From positions 16,687-80,686 of the forward strand of contig JACPBS010000010.1 in the NCBI GenBank assembly GCA_016180195.1: DNA of 64,000 nt. Direction: 5' to 3'. This DNA comes from Candidatus Woesearchaeota archaeon (GTDB lineage: Archaea > Nanobdellota > Nanobdellia > Woesearchaeales > UBA10216). Below are positions 34,323-44,846 of the stretch, one piece after another; the stretch's first letter is position 1, and each line of letters opens with the position of its first letter. Both the position numbers and the translations under genes were made by a program. The notes under the pieces are model-generated. The model was not told the DNA's origin. It saw nothing but the letters and a program-made list of their open reading frames with translations, and searched no databases.

Positions 34323-36230
34323 ATGTCAAAGGCATATTTTGCTGAGCACATGGGGAAGGATGATTTCCTGAAGCTGGCAGTGAAGTTTAATCCGAATGCA
34401 AATGTGAATCTTATTGGCAAGGCTTTTGATTTCGCTGAGCAGAGCCATCGTGGCCAGAAGAGGCTTTCTGGAAGGGATTATTTCCTTCATTGCAAGGAAG
34501 TTGCGTACATGCTTGTTAAGCTGAGGCTGGATACAGCCACGATTTGTGCAGGACTGCTCCATGATGTTCTTGAGGATTCTGACAGGAAGGGTGAAGAGAT
34601 CAGGAGAACTTTCGGCGAGGAAATCCATTATCTTGTTGTTGCCCTGACCAAGACGAAGAACATAAGCTTGCAGGCAAGCGATGAGGAAAGGGCGGAAAAC
34701 ATCAGGAAGGTTCTTCTTGCATCTATCAAGGATATAAGGGTGATTTTCATCAAGCTTGCTGACAGGCTCCATAATATGCGCACCCTTAAGTATCAGCCTT
34801 ATGATAAGCAGGTTGCTGTTTCAAGGGAGACCCTTGATATCTATGTTCCGATTGCGTATAAGCTTGGTATGTACAGGATAAAGTCTGAGCTTGAAGATCT
34901 GTGCCTTAAGCATCTTAACCCTTCTGTGTATATGGAGCTGAAGGTGAGGATTGACAAGAAGAAGGAGGAGAGGGAGCAGGAGGTTAAGTCTGTGATCAAG
35001 ACTGTGAAGAACATTCTAAGTTCAAGGGGGATTAAGGCAAAGATCAGCGGGAGGGCTAAGAATTTTTTCAGCATCTACAAGAAGATGCTCAGGAAAGGTG
35101 TCTCGTTTGAGGAGATTCACGACCTGTCCGCGATAAGGATCATTGCTGATAATCCTGATGACTGTTACAGGATTCTCGGCATAATCCATTCGACTTGGAC
35201 TCCTTTGGTCAAGAGGTTTGATGATTATATCGCATTTCCGAAGCCGAACATGTACCAGTCACTCCATACAGAGGTTTTGATCAACAAGAAGCCTGTTGAG
35301 GTTCAGATCAGGACTTGGAAGATGCATCACATTGCCGAAGAGGGGTTTGCCGCTCATTGGAGGTATAAGGATACGGAGAGGGATAAGAGGTTCGATCGGA
35401 AAATAGCGTGGCTCAAGCAGATTCTGGAATGGAGGATGTCCTCAAATGCCAAGGAATTCCTGGAGAACCTTAAGATTGATCTTTTCAAGGACGAGATTTA
35501 CGCTATCACCCCAAAAGGGGATCCTATATCGCTTCCCGAGAAGGCAACTCCGGTTGATTTTGCCTTCGCTGTTCATACGGATATAGGCAACCGCTGTGTC
35601 AGGGCCAAGGTGAATAATGCAATCGTTCCTTTGGATCATGAGCTCAAAAGTGGCGATGTTGTTGAGATAATAACTTCAAAGAATGCCGTTCCTTCAAGGA
35701 ACTGGCTGAAGTTCGTGAAGACAACCTTGGCTAAGAGCAAGATAAGGCACGGGCTTGGTATTCTGCTTCCTGAAGCTCAGTCTGAAAAGGAAATTGCTGA
35801 TGAGGAGCAGGTGATCTCAAGGATTGATTTTGAGAAGAGCTCCATGCTGAAGCTTTCCAGGTGTTGCCTGCCCAGGTATGGTGACCAGTTAACAGGCTAC
35901 AGGATGAAGGATGGTAAGATTGCTGTTCATAAGGCAGGCTGTGATAATTTCAGGCAGCTTGATTCAGGCAGGAAGATGTTGCTGGGTTGGAAGGGCATGG
36001 AGAGCTCGGGGACCGTGAAGCTCCGTGCAGAGGTGATTGAGAGCAGTGGGATGTTCCAGGAGGTTCTTGGTTCGCTTACGAGCAGCGGTGTAAAGATAGA
36101 ATCAATCCGTGCAAAGACGAGCAAGAACAGGCTGTTGATATTGCTCGAAGTGAAGCCTGGAAGCGAGTTGGGAAAGGCGATTGACACCCTAAAAAAGGTT
36201 GAGAACGTGATTGAGGTCAGGATAGAATAG
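34323..36230 (+). CDS. Full-length RelA/SpoT homologue (HD hydrolase + (p)ppGpp synthetase + TGS + ACT)
   Basis: HD motif (HRGQKR...LLHDVLED). Synthetase motifs (RAKNFFSIYKKM, YIAFPKPNMYQSLHT, EVQIRTWKMHHIAEEGFAAHWRYK). TGS (IYAITPKGD) and a C-terminal ACT. Confidence 0.85.
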   Translation: MSKAYFAEHMGKDDFLKLAVKFNPNANVNLIGKAFDFAEQSHRGQKRLSGRDYFLHCKEVAYMLVKLRLDTATICAGLLHDVLEDSDRKGEEIRRTFGEEIHYLVVALTKTKNISLQASDEERAENIRKVLLASIKDIRVIFIKLADRLHNMRTLKYQPYDKQVAVSRETLDIYVPIAYKLGMYRIKSELEDLCLKHLNPSVYMELKVRIDKKKEEREQEVKSVIKTVKNILSSRGIKAKISGRAKNFFSIYKKMLRKGVSFEEIHDLSAIRIIADNPDDCYRILGIIHSTWTPLVKRFDDYIAFPKPNMYQSLHTEVLINKKPVEVQIRTWKMHHIAEEGFAAHWRYKDTERDKRFDRKIAWLKQILEWRMSSNAKEFLENLKIDLFKDEIYAITPKGDPISLPEKATPVDFAFAVHTDIGNRCVRAKVNNAIVPLDHELKSGDVVEIITSKNAVPSRNWLKFVKTTLAKSKIRHGLGILLPEAQSEKEIADEEQVISRIDFEKSSMLKLSRCCLPRYGDQLTGYRMKDGKIAVHKAGCDNFRQLDSGRKMLLGWKGMESSGTVKLRAEVIESSGMFQEVLGSLTSSGVKIESIRAKTSKNRLLILLEVKPGSELGKAIDTLKKVENVIEVRIE

Positions 36231-37510: not shown

Positions 37511-37951
37511 CTATTTTTTTGATTTTTCCTTGATAAAGATTGCCGCCGCTGCTAGAACTGTCAGTCCACCTATTGCCCAGAAATAGATCTTGTAGGGCGT
37601 TTCCTGTATGAATGGTGTGCCGATTGTCAGCATCCCGAAGTTTGCTATTATTAGGTTTTTTGATATGCATTTCCCGTATTTGAAGTACAGGAATAGTGTC
37701 AGGAGGAAGAGTGAGACCCCGATCAGCCATATTGGTGTCGCTATCTGCTGCAGGAAGAGCAGCGGCATTCCGGTAACTGTTATTCCTATCACGCTTAAAA
37801 GGGAAATCGCGGCCATGCATATGCTGTGGCAGAGATTATAGGAGCTGAATATTCCGGATATCCCTGACGCGCTGCTTGCCCCGCTTATCAGTTTTTCTTT
37901 TGCTGTTTTTGTGTTTGGCATCCTTTTCCGTTTTTTCCCAGTTCGTTTCAC
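37511..37951 (-). CDS. Hypothetical membrane protein with an intramembrane CxxxC
   Basis: Four TM helices. CHSIC lies in the first helix. Last gene of the redox operon. Confidence 0.4.
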   Translation of the reverse strand: MKRTGKKRKRMPNTKTAKEKLISGASSASGISGIFSSYNLCHSICMAAISLLSVIGITVTGMPLLFLQQIATPIWLIGVSLFLLTLFLYFKYGKCISKNLIIANFGMLTIGTPFIQETPYKIYFWAIGGLTVLAAAAIFIKEKSKK

Positions 37952-38012: not shown

Positions 38013-39182
38013 CTATTGCTGCGTTGCTGCTGGGTTTTCAATTACTTTCCCTGTTTCAAGGTCCTTGTACGGGTGTCCGGGCCATTGGTCGAACTTTCTG
38101 AATATGTATTTTCCGTCGCTTTCTATTGTTCCCACAACAGTCCATGGGGCATTGAGGTTATTGTATGCTTCGACATCTGAAAGTATTATTGTAGGTACTG
38201 ATGTTATGTTGTATTTCCTTATGAGGCTTTTCCCCTCTGTGCTTGAGATGTCAACGGTCTTTTGCGTGTCAAGCTCGATTCCGAATCCTAGCTTGAGTAT
38301 GCTTATGTGATCTGTGACGTTGTAGCATTGGCCGCATTTGCTGTCGTTTAGCATTATTGCTGATGCCAGGCCTATTGTTTTCCCGGATTCAAGCTCGTAA
38401 TATGGCGGGTTTGCTTCCCTCATCACGTATGTTCCGTCTTTTTCAATCGTTCCTATGGAATCCCATACCTCTGCTATTATTGGGTATTTTGAGGCATCGC
38501 TTGAAAGCAGCATTGCGGGCACCTTTGTTATGTTATATTTCTTGGCAAGCGCCGCACCCTGGTCTGATGATGCATCTAGCTCGTTTTCCTTGTATATCCC
38601 TATGCCTGCCGCTCTCATCTGTGTTGCCATTGAGTTCATGCTTGAGCATTTGGCACACAATTTGGAGTTCAGGTATGTTATGGTTATTCTTCCCACGATT
38701 TTCTGTTCAGCCAGGTCCCTGTATGGTGGTCCTACGCTGCCGAGAACCATGGCATTATTTTCCTTGTTGAACCCTGATAGCGATAATTTTTCTGTTTCCC
38801 CTGTAATGACTATGGTTGGTACGTTTTTTATCCCGTATTTGTTTATGATTTCCTGTGCTTCAGGGCTTGTATAGTCTATGCTTTTTTCGCTTGTTACGTT
38901 GACGTTCAATCCCTTTATGTTCTGTATTAGACCTTCAATCTGGAAGCAGTCTGTGCAGCTTTTATCTGTTATTGATGTCAGTTGGATTGCTGCTGGTTTG
39001 GCAACGTTTTTTGCTTCAGCGAGCTTGGAGCTTATTGTTGAGCTTAGGCTTGATATCTGTGCCTGGTTGAAGATCATTATTGCGAGCAGCACTGCCATCA
39101 TTGCAGGTATTATGATGTTCTTATGCGTCTTGTGGACTGGTAAGTGTTTGTGTTGTTCCATTTGTTTCACCTTAGGCTGCAT
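38013..39182 (-). CDS. Membrane-anchored protein with three thioredoxin-fold repeats (CxxC each)
   Basis: Three repeats with CTDC / CAKC / CGQC, each followed by a KYGI(K)NVPTIVI-type cis-Pro loop. N-terminal TM anchor. Confidence 0.6.
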   Translation of the reverse strand: MQPKVKQMEQHKHLPVHKTHKNIIIPAMMAVLLAIMIFNQAQISSLSSTISSKLAEAKNVAKPAAIQLTSITDKSCTDCFQIEGLIQNIKGLNVNVTSEKSIDYTSPEAQEIINKYGIKNVPTIVITGETEKLSLSGFNKENNAMVLGSVGPPYRDLAEQKIVGRITITYLNSKLCAKCSSMNSMATQMRAAGIGIYKENELDASSDQGAALAKKYNITKVPAMLLSSDASKYPIIAEVWDSIGTIEKDGTYVMREANPPYYELESGKTIGLASAIMLNDSKCGQCYNVTDHISILKLGFGIELDTQKTVDISSTEGKSLIRKYNITSVPTIILSDVEAYNNLNAPWTVVGTIESDGKYIFRKFDQWPGHPYKDLETGKVIENPAATQQ

Positions 39183-39640
39183 CCTGATAGCTGGCTGATA
39201 GCTTCCAGTGTCTGAACTTGCCTGTACATTGTTCCGTTTATCTCCCAGGTCGGGGTTATGGTTATTTGCTTCTCATCGCAGAGCGCTTTTTGCTCGTCGC
39301 AAATCACGTATTTCAGGTTTTTGAAGGATTCGCCGAACATGCTTTTCTGTCTTCCGGTGTACTTGCACCATTCATTTCCATATATGACAACGTCTTTTGT
39401 TGCCAGGCATTTTGTAAATTCATCAACCTTTGCCGCGTTTGCGCTGGATGACTTGAAAATCAGGAATATTCCGAATAGAATCATTAGTGCAACAAACCCG
39501 AGGGCTGCCTTCAGGAAAATGTCTTTCCTGTTGCTTTCCGCCTTGTCTTTTTTCCGCTCTTCCCTTGTTTGTTCCCTTTTTAGCTTTCTTTTCTCAGCCC
39601 TTGTAAGCTCTGGGCTGTCAGGGTTTGTTGGCTCTTCCAT
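39167..39640 (-). CDS. Membrane-anchored glutaredoxin/thioredoxin-fold protein
   Basis: Basic N-terminus, TM helix, then VVIYGNEWCKYTG...ITITPTWEING (Trx-fold signature). Confidence 0.5.
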   Translation of the reverse strand: MEEPTNPDSPELTRAEKRKLKREQTREERKKDKAESNRKDIFLKAALGFVALMILFGIFLIFKSSSANAAKVDEFTKCLATKDVVIYGNEWCKYTGRQKSMFGESFKNLKYVICDEQKALCDEKQITITPTWEINGTMYRQVQTLEAISQLSGCSLR

Positions 39641-39643
39641 TGA

Positions 39644-39853
39644 TTACACCGAAGGCAATGCGCTTTGGATCGTTTCTGTGTTGTCAGGCACAGCAGCTTG
39701 CTGCCCGGCAAATCTTCCGCATCCACCTGCTCCCTGTGGCTGGTTGTTTGCGCTGTATGTTGCGTATCCTGTCTGCTGCGATTTTGATTCGCATCCTGCA
39801 ACAATCAGCGATGTCAGAGCCAGCACTGCCATAACTAGTAATATTTTCCTCAT
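39644..39853 (-). CDS. Small secreted protein with a lipobox (LIVAGC)
   Basis: Signal peptide MRKILLVMAVLALTSLIVAG/C fits the [LVI][ASTVI][GAS]C consensus. Confidence 0.45.
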   Translation of the reverse strand: MRKILLVMAVLALTSLIVAGCESKSQQTGYATYSANNQPQGAGGCGRFAGQQAAVPDNTETIQSALPSV

Positions 39854-39865
39854 TTTTTTTTCCTC

Positions 39866-40066
39866 CTAGCATCCACCTACCATTGTAGGCAGCTCATTTA
39901 TGTTGTTTGTTGACTGTCCTGTGCCTGTATTCGTGGCAGCAGATCCCCCTATTTTTATTGAGCCCTCTTCGATCTTTGCTTTCAGGCTTGTAAGCTGGTA
40001 TGCTTGAACTGCCGAGGCTATTAGCAGGAAGCCCAATACTATGATCATGATAAGGTTTTTGTTCAT
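39866..40066 (-). CDS. Small secreted protein ending in ELPTMVGGC
   Basis: Signal peptide MNKNLIMIIVLGFLLIASAVQA. The C-terminal 8 residues are conserved with the upstream gene despite synonymous codon changes. Confidence 0.45.
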   Translation of the reverse strand: MNKNLIMIIVLGFLLIASAVQAYQLTSLKAKIEEGSIKIGGSAATNTGTGQSTNNINELPTMVGGC

Positions 40067-40076
40067 TTTTTTCCTC

Positions 40077-40784
40077 CTAGCATCCTCCAACCATTGTTGG
40101 CAGGTCTCCGATGTTTGACTTGTCGCCTGCTTTAATTTTTTTGAGCAGATCCTTGTCGTTAAGGACTGCGGGTGTTATCTCGATGCCGTTTTCCACTGCG
40201 GCAACGCCCTTCTCAACCATGTTCTTGGGGTAGTACAATGCTTTCCATCGTGTAAGCTCGGCGAGAACCTGCTCGTTTGTCCATTTGTCAGGCTCATTTT
40301 TCAGGAGGTATTTTGTGAGCCCCCTGAAAGATGCCGCGTGTGCGCATCCGCATGCATCCCTTCCGCTTGGGTCGACCACATATGGTGCGCCGCAGCAGAA
40401 CTCGCAGCTTATCCGGGTTGTAACGTTTATGTATCTTGTTTTTTCATCTGCACTTAGCTGGGAAGTGGGTATTTTTCTGTCAAGGTTTGCCAGGACATTT
40501 ATGCTTTGCTCAGGCGTGTCATAGCTGACTCCTATATCTTCTCCGTAGCTAGGCATTCCTTTGGGTATGATTGCCGCGATTACGTTCTGGACAACATCCC
40601 CGCCCTGCTTTACCTTGAACGACGTGTCTTTGCTGGAGCTTCCCGATCCGATGTTGAAGAATCCTGTTTTCTGCCCGCCAATGGCGGCTGATACTGATAG
40701 CACCTGCAGGCTGTTAAACACAACAAGCAGGGCCAGGATCGCTACTCCGATTAGTTCCCAGTTGTTCTTTATCCTGTCGCGCAT
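40077..40784 (-). CDS. Membrane-anchored protein with a Cys cluster (CEFCCG...CGC), ending in DLPTMVGGC
   Basis: N-terminal TM helix. C-terminal motif shared with the downstream paralogue. First gene of the operon. Confidence 0.5.
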   Translation of the reverse strand: MRDRIKNNWELIGVAILALLVVFNSLQVLSVSAAIGGQKTGFFNIGSGSSSKDTSFKVKQGGDVVQNVIAAIIPKGMPSYGEDIGVSYDTPEQSINVLANLDRKIPTSQLSADEKTRYINVTTRISCEFCCGAPYVVDPSGRDACGCAHAASFRGLTKYLLKNEPDKWTNEQVLAELTRWKALYYPKNMVEKGVAAVENGIEITPAVLNDKDLLKKIKAGDKSNIGDLPTMVGGC

Positions 40785-40958
40785 TCTGAAAGATCCCCCG
40801 ATTCAAAGATTATCAACACCTAAACTATTTTATTAAAAATTTGGGTGTTTCATTATACTTTACAGGCTTTGTAATGCTTATATTTAAATTTTTGTTTTCT
40901 GATAACCTTTACACTCCCCGTAAAATATTTATAGTTGATTCTTCATTTGCTTTTTCTG

Positions 40959-41333
40959 ATGAAGGGCATTAAGTTTAACACCGATTTCGAATCTGTTCTC
41001 AGCCCTTTGGAGAGGGATGTTCTGCAGCTTTTGTGGCCTGACAGGAGGATGAAGGTCAGGCATATTTATGAAAAGCTGAGGCCAAGGAGGGATGTTGCGC
41101 TAAGCAGCGTGGCGGTTATCCTGGACAGGCTTTTTGAGAAGGGGGTTGTTGACAGGGAGATAGAGACAGGAAGGGGCGGGATAAGATATGTCTATTATCC
41201 GCTTCATGACCGCAAGCAGTTCGAGAGATCTTTGATCGAGACAACTGTGAACAGCCTTATTGACCGTTTTGGAACAACTGCTGTTTCGTATTTCAACAGC
41301 AGGTTTGGGGATGAGGGTGAGAAGAAGAAATGA
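40959..41333 (+). CDS. BlaI/MecI/CopY-family winged-helix repressor
   Basis: LSPLERDVLQLLWPDRRMKVRHIYEKL...VAVILDRLFEKGVVDRE is the Penicillinase_R pattern. Confidence 0.65.
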   Translation: MKGIKFNTDFESVLSPLERDVLQLLWPDRRMKVRHIYEKLRPRRDVALSSVAVILDRLFEKGVVDREIETGRGGIRYVYYPLHDRKQFERSLIETTVNSLIDRFGTTAVSYFNSRFGDEGEKKK

Positions 41334-42079
41334 TCTGCAATGAGTGCGCGCCGCTTTTCTTTGGCGACCCTGTGAAGATTGTTATCGCGGTTTCATCGCT
41401 GGCTGTTGCCCTTCTGACCTTTTTGCTTATCCTGAAAAGGGACCTTTCTTATGGGGTCAGGGTGTTTTTGATTTATCTTCACGTGTTCTCGCTTGTTTTC
41501 CCTTTTGTTTTTTATCTTTTTTTCAGCGGGTGCAGCACACTTTTTTCGGGGTGCAGCAAGATTGTTCCTGTGATTTACATGCTGCTGATAACTGGCGTTA
41601 TTTCTGCCATAATCGGCTCTGTTTGCGCGCCAATCGTGTTCATGTGGAGAAGCTCGAGGTGCAGGCTCAATGATCGGGGGATTTCAAGATTTGTATGCAG
41701 GGAATCGGGTGTTGCCGGAATAAGGCCGCCATCGCTTTTCATTGTTGACTCGGCAAGTCCCTTTGCCTTCTCTTTTTCGAACATAAGGCCTGTGATTTTT
41801 GTTTCAGTCGGTCTTCTAGACCTGCTTGGGAGGAAGGAGCTTGAGGCCGTTTTGCTGCATGAGATCATGCACATCAGGAATGGTGCTTCGATTTTCAGGT
41901 TTTCTGCTTTTTTCATGAGGGTGTTCTCCCCCCTTTCTATGTTTGCTTCCCTTGGTCGCGAGCTGGATGAGGAAGAGCTCGGCGCTGACAGGTATGCGTG
42001 CCTGAGGCAGGGCACTTCAAGATTTGTTGAATCTGCAAAAAGGAAGATTGACCTGTTTTTTTACTGGAGGAAAATATAA
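41330..42079 (+). CDS. BlaR1/MecR1-like M56 zinc-metalloprotease membrane protein
   Basis: Four TM helices. HExxH (LLHEIMHIRN) in the cytoplasmic loop. Overlaps the repressor gene stop. Confidence 0.65.
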   Translation: MICNECAPLFFGDPVKIVIAVSSLAVALLTFLLILKRDLSYGVRVFLIYLHVFSLVFPFVFYLFFSGCSTLFSGCSKIVPVIYMLLITGVISAIIGSVCAPIVFMWRSSRCRLNDRGISRFVCRESGVAGIRPPSLFIVDSASPFAFSFSNIRPVIFVSVGLLDLLGRKELEAVLLHEIMHIRNGASIFRFSAFFMRVFSPLSMFASLGRELDEEELGADRYACLRQGTSRFVESAKRKIDLFFYWRKI

Positions 42080-42083
42080 ACTG

Positions 42084-43175
42084 ATGAGGAAATCTGTTTA
42101 CCTGGTCCCGTTTGCAGTTATATTTTTCCTATTCGCTCTGGCTTCGTTTTTCCGTGACTCCATTGATGTTTCGCTGATTTCGAATTTGAGGAATATTTCT
42201 TTTGCTATAGCTTTTCTCGGCGGTGTTATGAGCATATTCTCGCCTTGCTCGATTGCGGTTGTTCCTGCTTTTGTGTCCTATGCATTCAAGGAAAGGCGGG
42301 ATGTTGGAAAGATGACCCTTGCATTTTTTGTCGGTTTTTCCCTGGCTTTTGTAACCCTTGGGTTGCTGATTGCTTACCTCGGTAAGATATCTTTTGTGTA
42401 TTTCCAGAACACATCCTCTGACCTTATCCTTGCCATTGGCTTCCTTTTGGTGATATTTGGGTTTATGGCATTTCTCGGCAGGGGTTTTACTTTCATCAGT
42501 ATCGGGATGAGGCCCGGGCATGACGTGGCGGGTGTTTTCCTTTTCGGCATTCTTTTTGCAGTCGGTTGGAGTGCCTGCAGCGGGCCTATCATCGCGGGCA
42601 TAATTTCTGTTGCAGCAGCATTCAGCAATTATGCGTATTCCGCTCTTCTTCTTTTTTTCTATTCGCTTGGGGTTGCTGTTCCCTTATTCTCGATGGCCTT
42701 CGCATATGACAGGTATAATCTCGCTGAGAATCCTTTTGTGAAGGGCAGGTATTTCGGTTTTTCTGTTCTCGGAAGGGATTTCATGGTTCATTCGACGAAT
42801 GCTGTTGCAGGCATCATGCTTGCAGGGCTTGGTCTCCTGTTTATCGTCTATAGGGGGACGACTTTTCTTACAGGCCTTGATCTTTTTGGCAGGTTTTTGC
42901 TTTTTGTTTTTCTGCTGCTGTGCGCCTATGTTGTGTATGAGCTTGCAGCCAAGAGGCTTGTTTCAGGGGCTAATGGCCGGCATGTCGCGTTTGTCCTGTT
43001 GTTTTTTGTTTCCCTTTCGGTTTTCATGTACATAAACTCTAATTTTATTGTGACAACTGTTGGTTATTCCGAGCTTTTTGACAGGATAATGCTTCAGAAC
43101 AGCGCAGTTTTCAATGTTGTTGGGGTGGTGCTTCTTGCTTTTTTTGTTTTTCTTATCCTGAGGGGAAAATATTAA
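42084..43175 (+). CDS. CcdA/DsbD-family transmembrane thiol-disulfide electron transporter
   Basis: AFLGGVMSIFSPCSIAVVPAFVSY (DsbD_2 signature, Cys in TM1) and a second Cys in TM4 (WSACSGPI). Confidence 0.7.
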   Translation: MRKSVYLVPFAVIFFLFALASFFRDSIDVSLISNLRNISFAIAFLGGVMSIFSPCSIAVVPAFVSYAFKERRDVGKMTLAFFVGFSLAFVTLGLLIAYLGKISFVYFQNTSSDLILAIGFLLVIFGFMAFLGRGFTFISIGMRPGHDVAGVFLFGILFAVGWSACSGPIIAGIISVAAAFSNYAYSALLLFFYSLGVAVPLFSMAFAYDRYNLAENPFVKGRYFGFSVLGRDFMVHSTNAVAGIMLAGLGLLFIVYRGTTFLTGLDLFGRFLLFVFLLLCAYVVYELAAKRLVSGANGRHVAFVLLFFVSLSVFMYINSNFIVTTVGYSELFDRIMLQNSAVFNVVGVVLLAFFVFLILRGKY

Positions 43176-43388: not shown

Positions 43389-44120
43389 TTGGATGCGCTT
43401 TTTTTGATCCTTTTTTCAGTTTCGATAGTCAGCCTTGTTTCGATACTTGCTGTTTTTTTTCTTAAGGTTGGCAGCCAGAGGCTTTTTTGGATAATAAGCT
43501 TTGCAGCGGGCACGATGCTTGGGGCTGCTTTCCTTGACATGCTTCCTGAGGCTGTTGAGGTTTCAGGGGGCTCTGTGCTTGTTTACAGCCTTGCCGGAAT
43601 CGCGGGTTTTTTTATCCTTGAGCATTTTATTCATTGGCATCACCACAGGCATGAGAGCAAGTCCTTGAAGTCCGCAGTGTATCCCATACTTGTGGGGGAC
43701 GCGATTCATAATTTCGTGGATGGCACAGTCATAGCTGCCAGTTTCCTCACTGATGTTCGGGTTGGGATAGCTGCAACTGCTGCCATTATCTTTCACGAGG
43801 TTCCGCAGGAGCTTGGTGACGCAGGCATCCTGATATATAGCGGTCTCAGCAGGTTTAAGGCTGCCGTATTTAATTTTGCGTCTGCGATTACTGCGTTCGT
43901 TGGCGCGCTTCTTGCTTTTTATTTCAATGCCCGGTTTGAATGGCTTAATGTTATCCTGGTTAGCTTTGCGGCCGGAGGTTTTATTTACATCGCCGCAGGA
44001 GACCTGCTTCCTGAGCTTAGGAAGGAGCTCGATGTAAAGAAGTCCGGGGTGCACATCATGCTTTTCCTGTCTGGAATCATGGCGATCTGGCTCATAATAA
44101 GGGTGGTTGGGGCGGTCTGA
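43389..44120 (+). CDS. zupT: ZIP-family metal transporter (ZupT-like)
   Basis: HHHRHE loop. GDAIHNFVDG and HEVPQELGDAG signatures. Confidence 0.85.
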   Translation: MDALFLILFSVSIVSLVSILAVFFLKVGSQRLFWIISFAAGTMLGAAFLDMLPEAVEVSGGSVLVYSLAGIAGFFILEHFIHWHHHRHESKSLKSAVYPILVGDAIHNFVDGTVIAASFLTDVRVGIAATAAIIFHEVPQELGDAGILIYSGLSRFKAAVFNFASAITAFVGALLAFYFNARFEWLNVILVSFAAGGFIYIAAGDLLPELRKELDVKKSGVHIMLFLSGIMAIWLIIRVVGAV

Positions 44121-44846
44121 ATGCTTCCTTATTTCACCTTATCATCTTTTAAGCTGGGATTTATCACGATTCATGTCTGGGGGATTTTTGCTGCGCTTGG
44201 TTTCATTGTTGGGATGTTTTTTGCTTCAAGGGAGGCTGCGAAAAGGGGGCTGGACCCTGATGCGATCCATGATTCTGCTCCATGGGTGATGCTTGGCGCC
44301 ATTGTGGGGGCGCGGATTGTTTTCCTTCTGGAGAACCCCTGGGCTGTTTCAGGCTTTTTTGATATTTTCAGTGTTTGGAATGGGGGCCTTGCTTTTCATG
44401 GGGGCTTTTTTGGGGGAGTCGGTGTTTTTTTGGCTTATATGAGGCACAAGGGCTTGAGTGTCTTAAGATATTCAGATGCGATTGCTCCTGGCATAGCTAT
44501 AGGCCATGCGGTTGGCAGGTTAGGATGCCATGTAACTGGCATGCATGTTGGCAAGGAGTCTTCGCTTCCGTGGTCAATATTTCATGAGGGGGCTGCCAGG
44601 CATCCGGTTATTCTGTATGAGATTGCGGCTTTGCTCCTCATTTTTTTTGTTCTTTTGTGGGTGAGGGAAAGGAAATTCTCCCGTGTTGATGGGCGTGTTT
44701 TCTTCATGTACATTGCATTGTATAGCTTCGCAAGGTTTTTCATTGAGTTTTTCAGGACAGACCCTGTTTATTTTGGCTTTTCAGCAGCTCAATTTATTGT
44801 CGTTGCCGTTTTTGCTGCTTCCCTGTTTTTCCTGTTTAGAAAATAG
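44121..44846 (+). CDS. lgt: Prolipoprotein diacylglyceryl transferase
   Basis: WNGGLAFHGGFFGG (Lgt GGLxxHGG motif). GRLGCHVTG is a degenerate Lgt signature. C-terminal ARFFIEFFRTDP...SAAQ. Confidence 0.75.
   Translation: MLPYFTLSSFKLGFITIHVWGIFAALGFIVGMFFASREAAKRGLDPDAIHDSAPWVMLGAIVGARIVFLLENPWAVSGFFDIFSVWNGGLAFHGGFFGGVGVFLAYMRHKGLSVLRYSDAIAPGIAIGHAVGRLGCHVTGMHVGKESSLPWSIFHEGAARHPVILYEIAALLLIFFVLLWVRERKFSRVDGRVFFMYIALYSFARFFIEFFRTDPVYFGFSAAQFIVVAVFAASLFFLFRK

Follow-up and report, generated by a model that had tools for sequence, protein, structure and literature searches.

A conserved terminal-cysteine tail in two protein families of DPANN archaea and Candidate Phyla Radiation bacteria, with a possible role as a membrane-tethered thiol arm

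Why do two neighbouring genes of a tiny groundwater archaeon, a woesearchaeon, encode proteins that end in the same eight residues, LPTMVGGC, and what might so short a peptide, closed by a cysteine, be for? The question is raised by a 64-kilobase (kb) stretch of DNA, which we call the window and within which all positions are counted. Both tail genes lie on its minus strand. One (40077..40784) encodes a protein of 235 residues, the large protein, which ends in ...KSNIGDLPTMVGGC-TAG (GDLPTMVGGC) and is 100% identical to HYU11_04165 of Candidatus Woesearchaeota archaeon; the other (39866..40066) encodes the small protein, which ends in ...NNINELPTMVGGC-TAG (NELPTMVGGC). The LPTMVGGC-TAG ending shared by the 235-residue protein and the next small protein was noticed in an original prediction made from the letters alone, and we confirm it from the sequence and the list of open reading frames (ORFs).

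DPANN archaea and Candidate Phyla Radiation (CPR) bacteria have tiny genomes and need contact with host cells, and for the greater part of their conserved surface proteins a function has yet to be assigned. The tail genes belong to a compact module that is common to both domains, shows very strong constraint on one terminal cysteine and carries no family annotation. We tentatively propose that LPxMVGGC-COOH may be the working end of a membrane-tethered arm whose terminal cysteine serves thiol chemistry, a reading that we place somewhat short of probable. Were it true, the module would give a concrete handle on surface thiol and copper chemistry, apparently without the usual Dsb or VKOR machinery, and would provide a second natural example, after SoxY, of a protein with a terminal-cysteine peptide arm, here one that a separate mini-protein can supply.

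Conservation of the tail as a peptide

The small protein had been predicted to be 74 residues long. A second tail protein does exist, but an ORF of that length (39866..40090) would start at a TTG and overlap the upstream large gene; the ATG at 40066, giving 66 residues, is the more likely start because it has its own GGAGG upstream and because the NCBI protein HYU11_04160 has 66 residues. The LPTMVGGC codons and their TAG occupy 40077..40103 in the large gene and 39866..39892 in the small one, both on the minus strand, and the eight shared codons contain three synonymous differences (CCA/CCT, GTT/GTA and GGA/GGT). In the 64-kb window, exact matches to the pattern ATGGTNGGNGGNTGY occur only at 39869-39883 and 40080-40094; with one mismatch allowed there is one extra site, against 0.55 sites expected by chance. 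Each tail copy is followed by the stop codon and GGAGG (TAG-GAGG), an A-run and ATG, in the order predicted, but the seven A's that had been read in both copies are 7 and 9 bases (the A of ATG counted). An identical stretch, GGATGCTAGGAGGAAAAAAA, runs beyond the stop codon, so that the intergenic junction is duplicated too.

This junction poses the plainest alternative, namely that the tail is the trace of a trivial local duplication, or a DNA- or RNA-level element (e.g. the ribosome-binding region of the next gene) that happens to be translated. The identity within the window does span the stop codon into the GGAGG-A-run junction, and GGAGGA occurs inside one tail. Upstream of the tail, however, the two window genes are unrelated in sequence, and their homologues in other genomes leave this explanation a negligible probability. 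We scanned GTDB, with one genome per species, for the pattern P-x-MVGGC-stop and recovered at least 120 loci; as each covers at most 8 kb, a gene missing from a locus tells little, and the taxon names used are the depositors' own. An ORF of at least 45 residues ending in the tail was present in at least 78 GTDB loci, at least 73 of which are genuine, i.e. encode a membrane-anchored family member. The large-then-small pair recurs in at least 47 GTDB loci besides the window, with the two genes mostly adjacent and in a few cases up to ~0.9 kb apart. Apart from a few chance matches in unrelated bacteria, the tail-bearing ORFs form two families only. The original prediction had called for a search for further MVGGC-ending proteins in related genomes, and these were found in DPANN archaea (Woesearchaeota, Pacearchaeota, Nanoarchaeota, Aenigmatarchaeota, Diapherotrites and Micrarchaeota-type lineages) and CPR bacteria (Paceibacterota, Magasanikiibacteriota, Uhrbacteria and Peribacteria).

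A number of contigs labelled as neither DPANN nor CPR, most of them short within a range of 2 to 60 kb, have operons much like those of Woesearchaeota or CPR bacteria. They comprise contigs labelled Methanosarcinales (L007, L014, L029, L044, L052, L056, L063, L073, L091 and L098), Udaeobacter (L025), Binatia (L075) and Gammaproteobacteria (L102), and the operon of L063 closely resembles that of the window. These labels may reflect mis-binning or mislabelling of contigs from metagenome-assembled genomes.

Conservation is strongest at the extreme C-terminus. Among the matches listed, 120/120 homologues of the large protein end in MVGGC, down to 33% identity and nearly always with LPx before it; they come from dozens of genomes in two domains, which removes the outcome under which no other tailed proteins would exist anywhere and the tail would be a local duplication. 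The codons, meanwhile, vary freely. Across 119 tail ORFs of other genomes, valine, both glycines and proline each appear with all 4 of their codons and cysteine with both (2), and the following stop is TAA in 73, TGA in 31 and TAG in 15. Since every synonymous codon and all three stops are used, selection acts on the peptide and the TAG is incidental, in agreement with the earlier claim that the peptide and not the DNA is conserved, under purifying selection. The same use of all three stops leads us to reject recoding of the TAG, whether by pyrrolysine or by readthrough. An invariant peptide under such codon use, the homologous tails and a pair that recurs in dozens of archaeal and bacterial genomes together exclude a duplication or nucleic-acid element as the explanation.

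The limits of this constraint were traced with a profile search, run exhaustively over 1.84 billion cluster representatives (50% identity), which returned only 320 representatives of the family at E<=0.001. Of 148 that were examined, 79 end in MVGGC and 38 in another xxGGC (mostly QVGGC), and about 133 of the 148 divergent representatives (~90%) retain a terminal cysteine; their tails can exchange methionine for glutamine and glycine for serine, alanine, aspartate or glutamate. The constants of the tail are the terminal cysteine, two small residues before it, and ahead of these valine and methionine or glutamine. Searches of the literature on MVGGC, LPXMVGGC and related cysteine motifs (CEFCC, CDYCC, PCYCGC), and on DPANN or CPR organisms in connection with CcdA, thioredoxin and copper, found nothing relevant.

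Anatomy of the large and small proteins

The chain of the large protein begins with a membrane helix whose last residues are NSLQV; a disordered spacer leads to an all-helical ectodomain, and a linker joins this to the C-terminal DLPTMVGGC. The ectodomain contains the invariant motif C127-E-x-C130-C131 ... C145-G-C147-x-H149, hereafter Cys5His. In an alignment of 57 diverse large proteins the invariant positions are G76, G81, L110, C127, E128, C130, C131, G141, C145, G146, C147, H149, L156, K181, P186, M189, P229 and M231 to C235. An AlphaFold2 model, all-helical, has a mean predicted local distance difference test score (pLDDT) of 89.7 and a predicted template modelling score of 0.77. It places the N-terminal helix at residues 9-35 and a helical domain of ~155 residues beyond the spacer, with the CxxCC...CGCxH segment forming short bridged loops inside that domain. 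Spacer residues 42-49 fall below a pLDDT of 50 (45), whereas the linker reaches 84 and the tail 77, a hint from the model that the tail may pack onto the ectodomain. Because basic residues precede the N-terminal helix, we infer that the chain beyond it lies outside the cell.

No relative of known function emerged for this protein. Library scans gave no Pfam or NCBIfam match; a Pfam scan at E<=0.01 of the window protein and one divergent member found no DUF411/CopG, PCYCGC or other family; a profile search against PDB sequences returned only a chance-level match to CsdA (E=2.3); and Foldseek of the AlphaFold2 model against the PDB gave no match at E<1. With a confident model and nothing like it in the PDB by Foldseek, the ectodomain is a good target for structure determination.

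The small protein is laid out more simply, as a membrane helix ending in the invariant motif VQAyQL, a linker rich in glycine, serine and threonine, and the ELPTMVGGC end. Q21, P60 and M62 to C66 are invariant in 40 small proteins. A single-sequence search with the 66-residue protein found 3 relatives only, and the GTDB pattern scan was far richer, giving about 70 homologues in the same position elsewhere (54 in a main cluster and ~15 divergent singletons). Pfam and NCBIfam scans of the small protein gave nothing significant. A type IV pilin was considered and rejected, its sole support being a weak PamT match (E=0.018) due to the hydrophobic helix, and a precursor of a ribosomally synthesised and post-translationally modified peptide or of a pheromone was likewise rejected, there being no maturase or ABC/C39 genes among the conserved neighbours. 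The small proteins of L027, L083, L101, L110 and L113 have a Met/His-rich insert in the linker, ETYEEMMARMHPDQ or AEYEKMMDEMHPG, which recalls Cu(I)-binding methionine motifs.

When the profiles of the two families are compared, alignment is confined to the 15 C-terminal residues (probability 96%, E=2.9e-9). The ends of the membrane helices also share [N/Q]xxQ[ILV], by motif counts and visual inspection, with NxxQ in 41/57 large and QxxQ in 38/40 small proteins. To judge by its sequence, the small protein is best described as the large protein minus the globular domain. The window pair thus joins a helix ending in [N/Q]xxQ[ILV], a flexible linker and (L)PxMVGGC in large-then-small order, the combination by which we define the pair.

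The two tails of a genome also vary together. Residue x of LPxMVGGC is the same in both proteins in 17/47 pairs, against 6.1 expected (permutation p<1e-4), and the ten residues upstream of the tail hold 97 identities against 77 in shuffled pairs (p=0.0035), in tests that ignore phylogeny. Recent gene conversion does not explain the match, since, over 302 codons, the stretches that are identical between large and small proteins differ at 122 nucleotides. The co-variation would be accounted for by a shared partner that reads both tails.

Further evidence on how the two families relate comes from ectodomain homologues that lack the tail. These occur in 12 loci and retain all five cysteines and the histidine (CDYCCGSP...CGCAHA), and in 12/12 of these loci a tailed small protein adjoins them. 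That tail-less ectodomains always stand beside a tailed small protein suggests that the tail can act in trans and that the ectodomain site needs five plus one cysteines. Several of the tail-less ectodomains are fused at their N-terminus to a domain of four transmembrane segments (4-TM) with an in-membrane CPxC(G) motif (L012 2188..3456, L035 2826..4055, L055 2388..3665, L071 3761..5080 and L021 6006..7316), and in CPR loci (L004, L010, L025, L027, L033 and L037) the same domain is a separate gene of ~160 residues. It has no match in Pfam or NCBIfam; judged by this architecture, the fusion ties the 4-TM CPxC domain functionally to the Cys5His domain.

Genes that accompany the tail

Neighbours were counted as clusters of ORFs in the 73 genuine loci. 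The most consistent, in 52/73 loci, is a membrane-anchored multi-thioredoxin of 389 residues in the window (38013..39182, minus strand), which resembles protein disulfide oxidoreductases (PDO-like) and carries CTDC, CAKC and CGQC; in 39/56 loci with enough sequence it is co-directional and within 1.5 kb downstream of the small gene. Next to it in the window lies a membrane-anchored thioredoxin-fold protein of 157 residues (39167..39640, minus strand) with WCKYT in place of WCPHC and a conserved cysteine near its C-terminus. It is homologous to the thioredoxin domain of Synechococcus VKOR (3KP8, E=3.6e-10), from which CPHC has changed to CKYT, hence its monothiol character; the domain occurs in 17 loci with the motif conserved. 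A 203-residue ORF (39258..39869, plus strand), antisense across the genes for this protein and for the lipoprotein described below, is almost certainly spurious, and it displaced the real 157-residue gene when the longest ORFs were selected.

On the plus strand, at 42024..43175, the window encodes a thiol-disulfide transporter of the CcdA/DsbD type (DsbD_TM PF02683, E=5.8e-12) with both membrane cysteines, which are conserved in 30 sequences. The CcdA cluster is present in 28 loci; as a few of its members are DUF411 or Grx-DUF411-CcdA fusions, CcdA itself is slightly less frequent.

Two plus-strand genes encode a probable regulatory pair. A winged-helix repressor of the BlaI/CopY family, divergent from the tail genes (40935..41333, with a likely start at ATG 40959; Penicillinase_R PF03965, E=3.3e-15), is followed by a BlaR1-like membrane metalloprotease of the M48/M56 type (41330..42079; 249 residues; HEIMH; PF01435 E=5.6e-7, with a PF05569 match at E=2e-5, below the gathering score). 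The repressor was found in 13 loci and the protease in 14, the peptidase gene always being paired with a BlaI-like repressor as in BlaR1/BlaI regulatory pairs. Pfam and NCBIfam scans found no penicillin-binding or transpeptidase sensor domain in the 249-residue protease. It does have a pair of cysteines, C-x6-C (residues about 67 and 74), that is conserved in >=80% of 14 homologues and could be a thiol- or metal-sensing site.

The divergent promoter region contains the TACA-N5-TGTA box TACAGGCTTTGTA (40861..40873), and a box of this form stands upstream of the repressor gene in 7/13 loci (window, L005, L060, L075, L109, L113 and L114), the spacer being 5 nt in every case. The BlaI/CopY-like repressor may use the box as its operator. 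The boxes resemble both the cop-box (consensus TACAnnTGTA) and bla operator half-sites, with a different spacing. The same intergenic region holds an imperfect inverted repeat, AACACCTAAACTATT / AAAAATTTGGGTGTT (40815..40849), which is 80% complementary with a 5-nt loop.

Immediately downstream of the small gene in the window is a third small protein (39644..39853, minus strand; 69 residues), a lipoprotein with the lipobox LIVAGC, a disordered Q/G-rich region, YATYS and GAGGCGR. A lipoprotein with (V/A)GGGCG(V/R) follows the small tail gene in L015, L042, L052, L056, L062, L063, L075, L080, L090 and L111; the variants have LIVAGC or LLVGC as lipobox, Y(A/S)TY and an internal Gly-flanked cysteine, tend to co-occur with the monothiol thioredoxin gene, and have no Pfam match. 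The idea that small protein and lipoprotein form a pair by cysteine parity was rejected, as many loci have no lipoprotein. A prolipoprotein diacylglyceryl transferase of bacterial type, Lgt, is encoded at 44121..44846 on the plus strand (LGT PF01790, E=8.6e-56), in an archaeal genome and beside an operon that encodes a lipobox protein, on which it plausibly acts.

The remaining companions are more varied. A small multi-pass membrane protein of 146 residues (37511..37951, minus strand), with an in-membrane CHxxC that is conserved in 10 loci, has no Pfam, NCBIfam or PDB match; other recurrent small membrane proteins have ACCAHH or HAHCPLC motifs, and a recurrent His-rich protein of ~200 residues is also part of the conserved module. 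Accessory genes of copper type appear in a subset of loci: a P-type ATPase that carries HMA and a CPC motif (6 loci), DUF411/CopG as the next gene after the small one in some loci (E=5.8e-25), a YHS-like mini-protein ending in HHGCCH, a PadR-TRASH protein and a Met/His-rich protein. The ZIP-family metal transporter at 43389..44120 (plus strand; Zip E=2.2e-35) adjoins the operon in this genome only and is no member of the conserved module.

What the terminal cysteine may do

The arm that we propose would work as follows. Both proteins would be held by their N-terminal helix with the rest of the chain extracellular, and each arm would display the invariant terminal cysteine, after two small residues, on a flexible linker, so that the same operon-encoded partners could read both. 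The Cys5His site (CxxCC...CGCxH) would gain its sixth thiol from a terminal cysteine, either that of the large protein itself (in cis) or that of the small protein (in trans). The tail cysteine would also enter into disulfide or mixed-disulfide exchange with two thioredoxin-fold proteins, the PDO-like one with its CxxC motifs and the monothiol one with CKYT, while the strongly conserved L-P-x-[M/Q]-V ahead of Gly-Gly-Cys would be the docking determinant. Proteins like the monothiol CKYT domain form stable mixed disulfides with one client cysteine. CcdA would bring reducing power from the cytoplasm and recharge the thioredoxin-fold proteins. The regulatory pair suggests that the module is stress-induced; the BlaI/CopY-like repressor and BlaR1-like protease would switch it on under envelope thiol or soft-metal stress, probably from copper. 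Of the roles offered in the original prediction, a recognition tag for the neighbouring thiol-redox proteins is the best-fitting, given the recurrence of multi-thioredoxin, CcdA and monothiol thioredoxin genes.

Several points tell against this proposal. The evidence for the cysteine chemistry itself is indirect, and pLDDT values are the single pointer to contact between the tail cysteine and the cluster. One cysteine cannot alone accept two electrons, and a redox role therefore needs a partner cysteine. About 30% of the loci with enough sequence lack a multi-thioredoxin gene immediately downstream. The co-variation of the tails, judged without regard to phylogeny, is a pattern that old gene conversion followed by synonymous drift gives as well. 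Finally, the copper accessory genes and the Met/His-rich inserts point equally to metal binding.

That last point leads to the main rival reading, which we rate as unlikely and in which the tail is a ligand arm for a soft metal of the Cu(I) type. A terminal thiolate, the neighbouring carboxylate and often a methionine thioether would capture metal at the surface and pass it to the Cys5His ectodomain or to other copper proteins, and the thioredoxins and CcdA would merely keep thiols reduced, in the manner of Scs. The copper-linked accessory genes (CPC ATPase, DUF411/CopG, the YHS-like HHGCCH protein, PadR-TRASH and the Met/His-rich protein) speak for it, and in Vibrio parahaemolyticus copG (DUF411) is copper-induced as part of the CueR regulon together with copA (PMC12341060). 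The insert ETYEEMMARMHPDQ of some small proteins, the ZIP transporter that adjoins the operon in the window, a repressor of the BlaI/CopY family with boxes that resemble the cop-box, and the suitability of five cysteines, a histidine and the tail cysteine for a metal-thiolate cluster all point the same way. On the other hand, methionine gives way to glutamine, which is no soft-metal ligand, in many divergent members, and the Gly-Gly positions tolerate aspartate or glutamate; the copper genes, found in 6 to 10 of 73 loci, are accessory to a module whose core includes the thioredoxin genes; library scans of the two tail proteins turned up no signature of HMA, CopZ or cupredoxin; and the repressor lacks the C-terminal CxCxxxxCxC that CopY carries. 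The metal-arm and redox-arm readings are compatible if copper stress is the trigger. Improbable, by comparison, is a covalent carrier arm like that of SoxY, bearing sulfane sulfur or another intermediate and relying on CcdA and thioredoxins for reactivation when wrongly oxidised. A Gly-flanked cysteine in the last residues of an extracytoplasmic chain, a feature that SoxY has as well (PMC5336275), the CcdA homologue and thioredoxins found in sox clusters too, and the internal GGGCG motif of the third operon protein fit this idea; against them stand the lack of any SoxY or SoxZ Pfam match, a predicted all-helical fold with no beta-sandwich, a motif that stops at the cysteine instead of continuing as GGCGG, and the absence of SoxAX, SoxB, SoxCD, rhodanese or another sulfur enzyme from the larger conserved neighbour clusters scanned.

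We think it just as improbable that the tail is a signal for processing, lipidation or sorting, be it prenylation or acylation of the cysteine, sortase-like cleavage, or attachment to a wall or S-layer. A short invariant C-terminal motif is typical of such signals, LPxM is loosely like LPxTG, and an M48/M56 peptidase gene lies nearby, M48 being the family that includes the CaaX protease Ste24. However, no hydrophobic or transmembrane segment and no basic tail follows the motif, the chain ending at the cysteine in ~90% of members; the peptidase always comes with the BlaI-like repressor and in only 14/73 loci; both proteins already have an N-terminal membrane anchor; and the cysteine is the last residue and not at position -4, as CaaX would have it. 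Neither sortase, exosortase, archaeosortase nor prenyltransferase occurs among the larger conserved neighbour clusters scanned in the 73 loci (whole genomes were not searched), and no transferase for lipidation or thioester chemistry of the tail was found. The processing site that had been suggested for the C-terminal cysteine is thus not borne out, and nothing supports a lipidation or sorting signal. LPXTG/sortase, PEP-CTERM and PGF-CTERM systems likewise place a short invariant motif close to the C-terminal end of surface proteins; the tail differs from them in having no transmembrane segment or basic tail after it and in being restricted to two families of one operon.

Among systems of known function, the swinging arm of SoxY is the closest functional precedent for the arm reading, by analogy. 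Like SoxY, the tail proteins would be extracytoplasmic, with a reactive, Gly-flanked cysteine at the C-terminal end, and in both cases CcdA and thioredoxins are co-encoded; sox clusters encode the CcdA homologue SoxV and the thioredoxins SoxW and SoxS. The differences are considerable. The SoxY motif is GGCGG and the present one MVGGC-COOH, with glycine after the cysteine in only 2/148 divergent representatives; there is no SoxY Pfam match, and the AlphaFold2 model is all-helical (pLDDT 89.7) where SoxY is an immunoglobulin-like beta-sandwich; SoxZ and Sox enzymes are missing from the larger neighbour clusters scanned; and the arm is here borne by two distinct proteins, each with a membrane anchor and one without any globular domain. 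In SoxY, substrates ride on a cysteine of a swinging arm that is presented to several partners (PMC5336275). Looser parallels are the short, mobile C-terminal thiol tails of some enzymes, namely the cysteine pair of MerA, the GCUG of thioredoxin reductase and the CGC of Erv2p, which carry electrons or metal back and forth between a buried active site and a partner outside. These are flavoenzymes with two redox-active residues in the tail, whereas the tail proteins have one cysteine, no detectable flavin domain and an arm that a separate mini-protein can supply. On the defining features that were examined, the tail proteins fall outside these families.

The likeness to CcdA/DsbD-thioredoxin reducing pathways is of another order, as the neighbours are true homologues of their components (DsbD_TM, the VKOR thioredoxin domain 3KP8 and PDO-like proteins), and a DsbD_TM protein with two conserved membrane cysteines occurs together with a thioredoxin-fold partner. 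The VKOR-type domain differs in being monothiol (CKYT), with VKOR itself absent, and the tail proteins, which would be the clients, lie outside all described families. With BlaI/BlaR1 (MecI/MecR1) and CopY the module shares a Penicillinase_R repressor, an adjacent HExxH membrane protease and TACA...TGTA boxes; however, the window protease has a C-x6-C pair and no penicillin-binding sensor domain, and the window repressor lacks the C-terminal cysteine motif of CopY and faces boxes spaced by N5, not N2. CopG/DUF411 and Scs proteins, whose biochemistry is one of copper tolerance, resemble the large protein in their dense cysteine motifs (CxCC in DUF411, CxxCC and CGC here) and extracytoplasmic location, and DUF411 and CopA-type genes are physically linked to the tail in some loci, but the large protein has no DUF411 or other Pfam match and the association with copper genes is partial. 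An HMA fold with MxCxxC was also looked for: neither tail protein has an HMA match, and HMA occurs only on the P-type ATPase of some loci.

The neighbours, then, are of known families (CcdA, thioredoxin/PDO, VKOR-type thioredoxin, BlaI and M48/M56), and the tail proteins, the lipoprotein and several of the membrane proteins are of no described family. A cysteine on a peptide arm served by a CcdA/thioredoxin relay is a known kind of device, proposed here on new protein families. The module may deserve to be regarded as a system in its own right should both the Cys5His site and the action of the mini-protein in trans be borne out. We can also envisage a wider scheme, a new envelope thiol system of DPANN and CPR organisms in which disordered, tethered polypeptides with Gly-flanked cysteines act as mobile thiols. 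It would comprise two MVGGC arms, joined by the GGGCG lipoprotein in some lineages, with the mini-protein giving the sixth cysteine in trans to a Cys5His ectodomain whose fold has not been seen before; it would be recharged via CcdA and thioredoxin and sensed by the BlaR1-like protease through its own cysteine pair. That all of these parts hold jointly we consider doubtful.

Elsewhere in the window are genes for TFIIB and a predicted aIF2-gamma, the latter assigned by reading the sequence. The window also encodes a full-length RelA/SpoT homologue (RSH) at 34323..36230 on the plus strand, with HD, RelA_SpoT, TGS and ACT domains; long RSH proteins are unusual in archaea.

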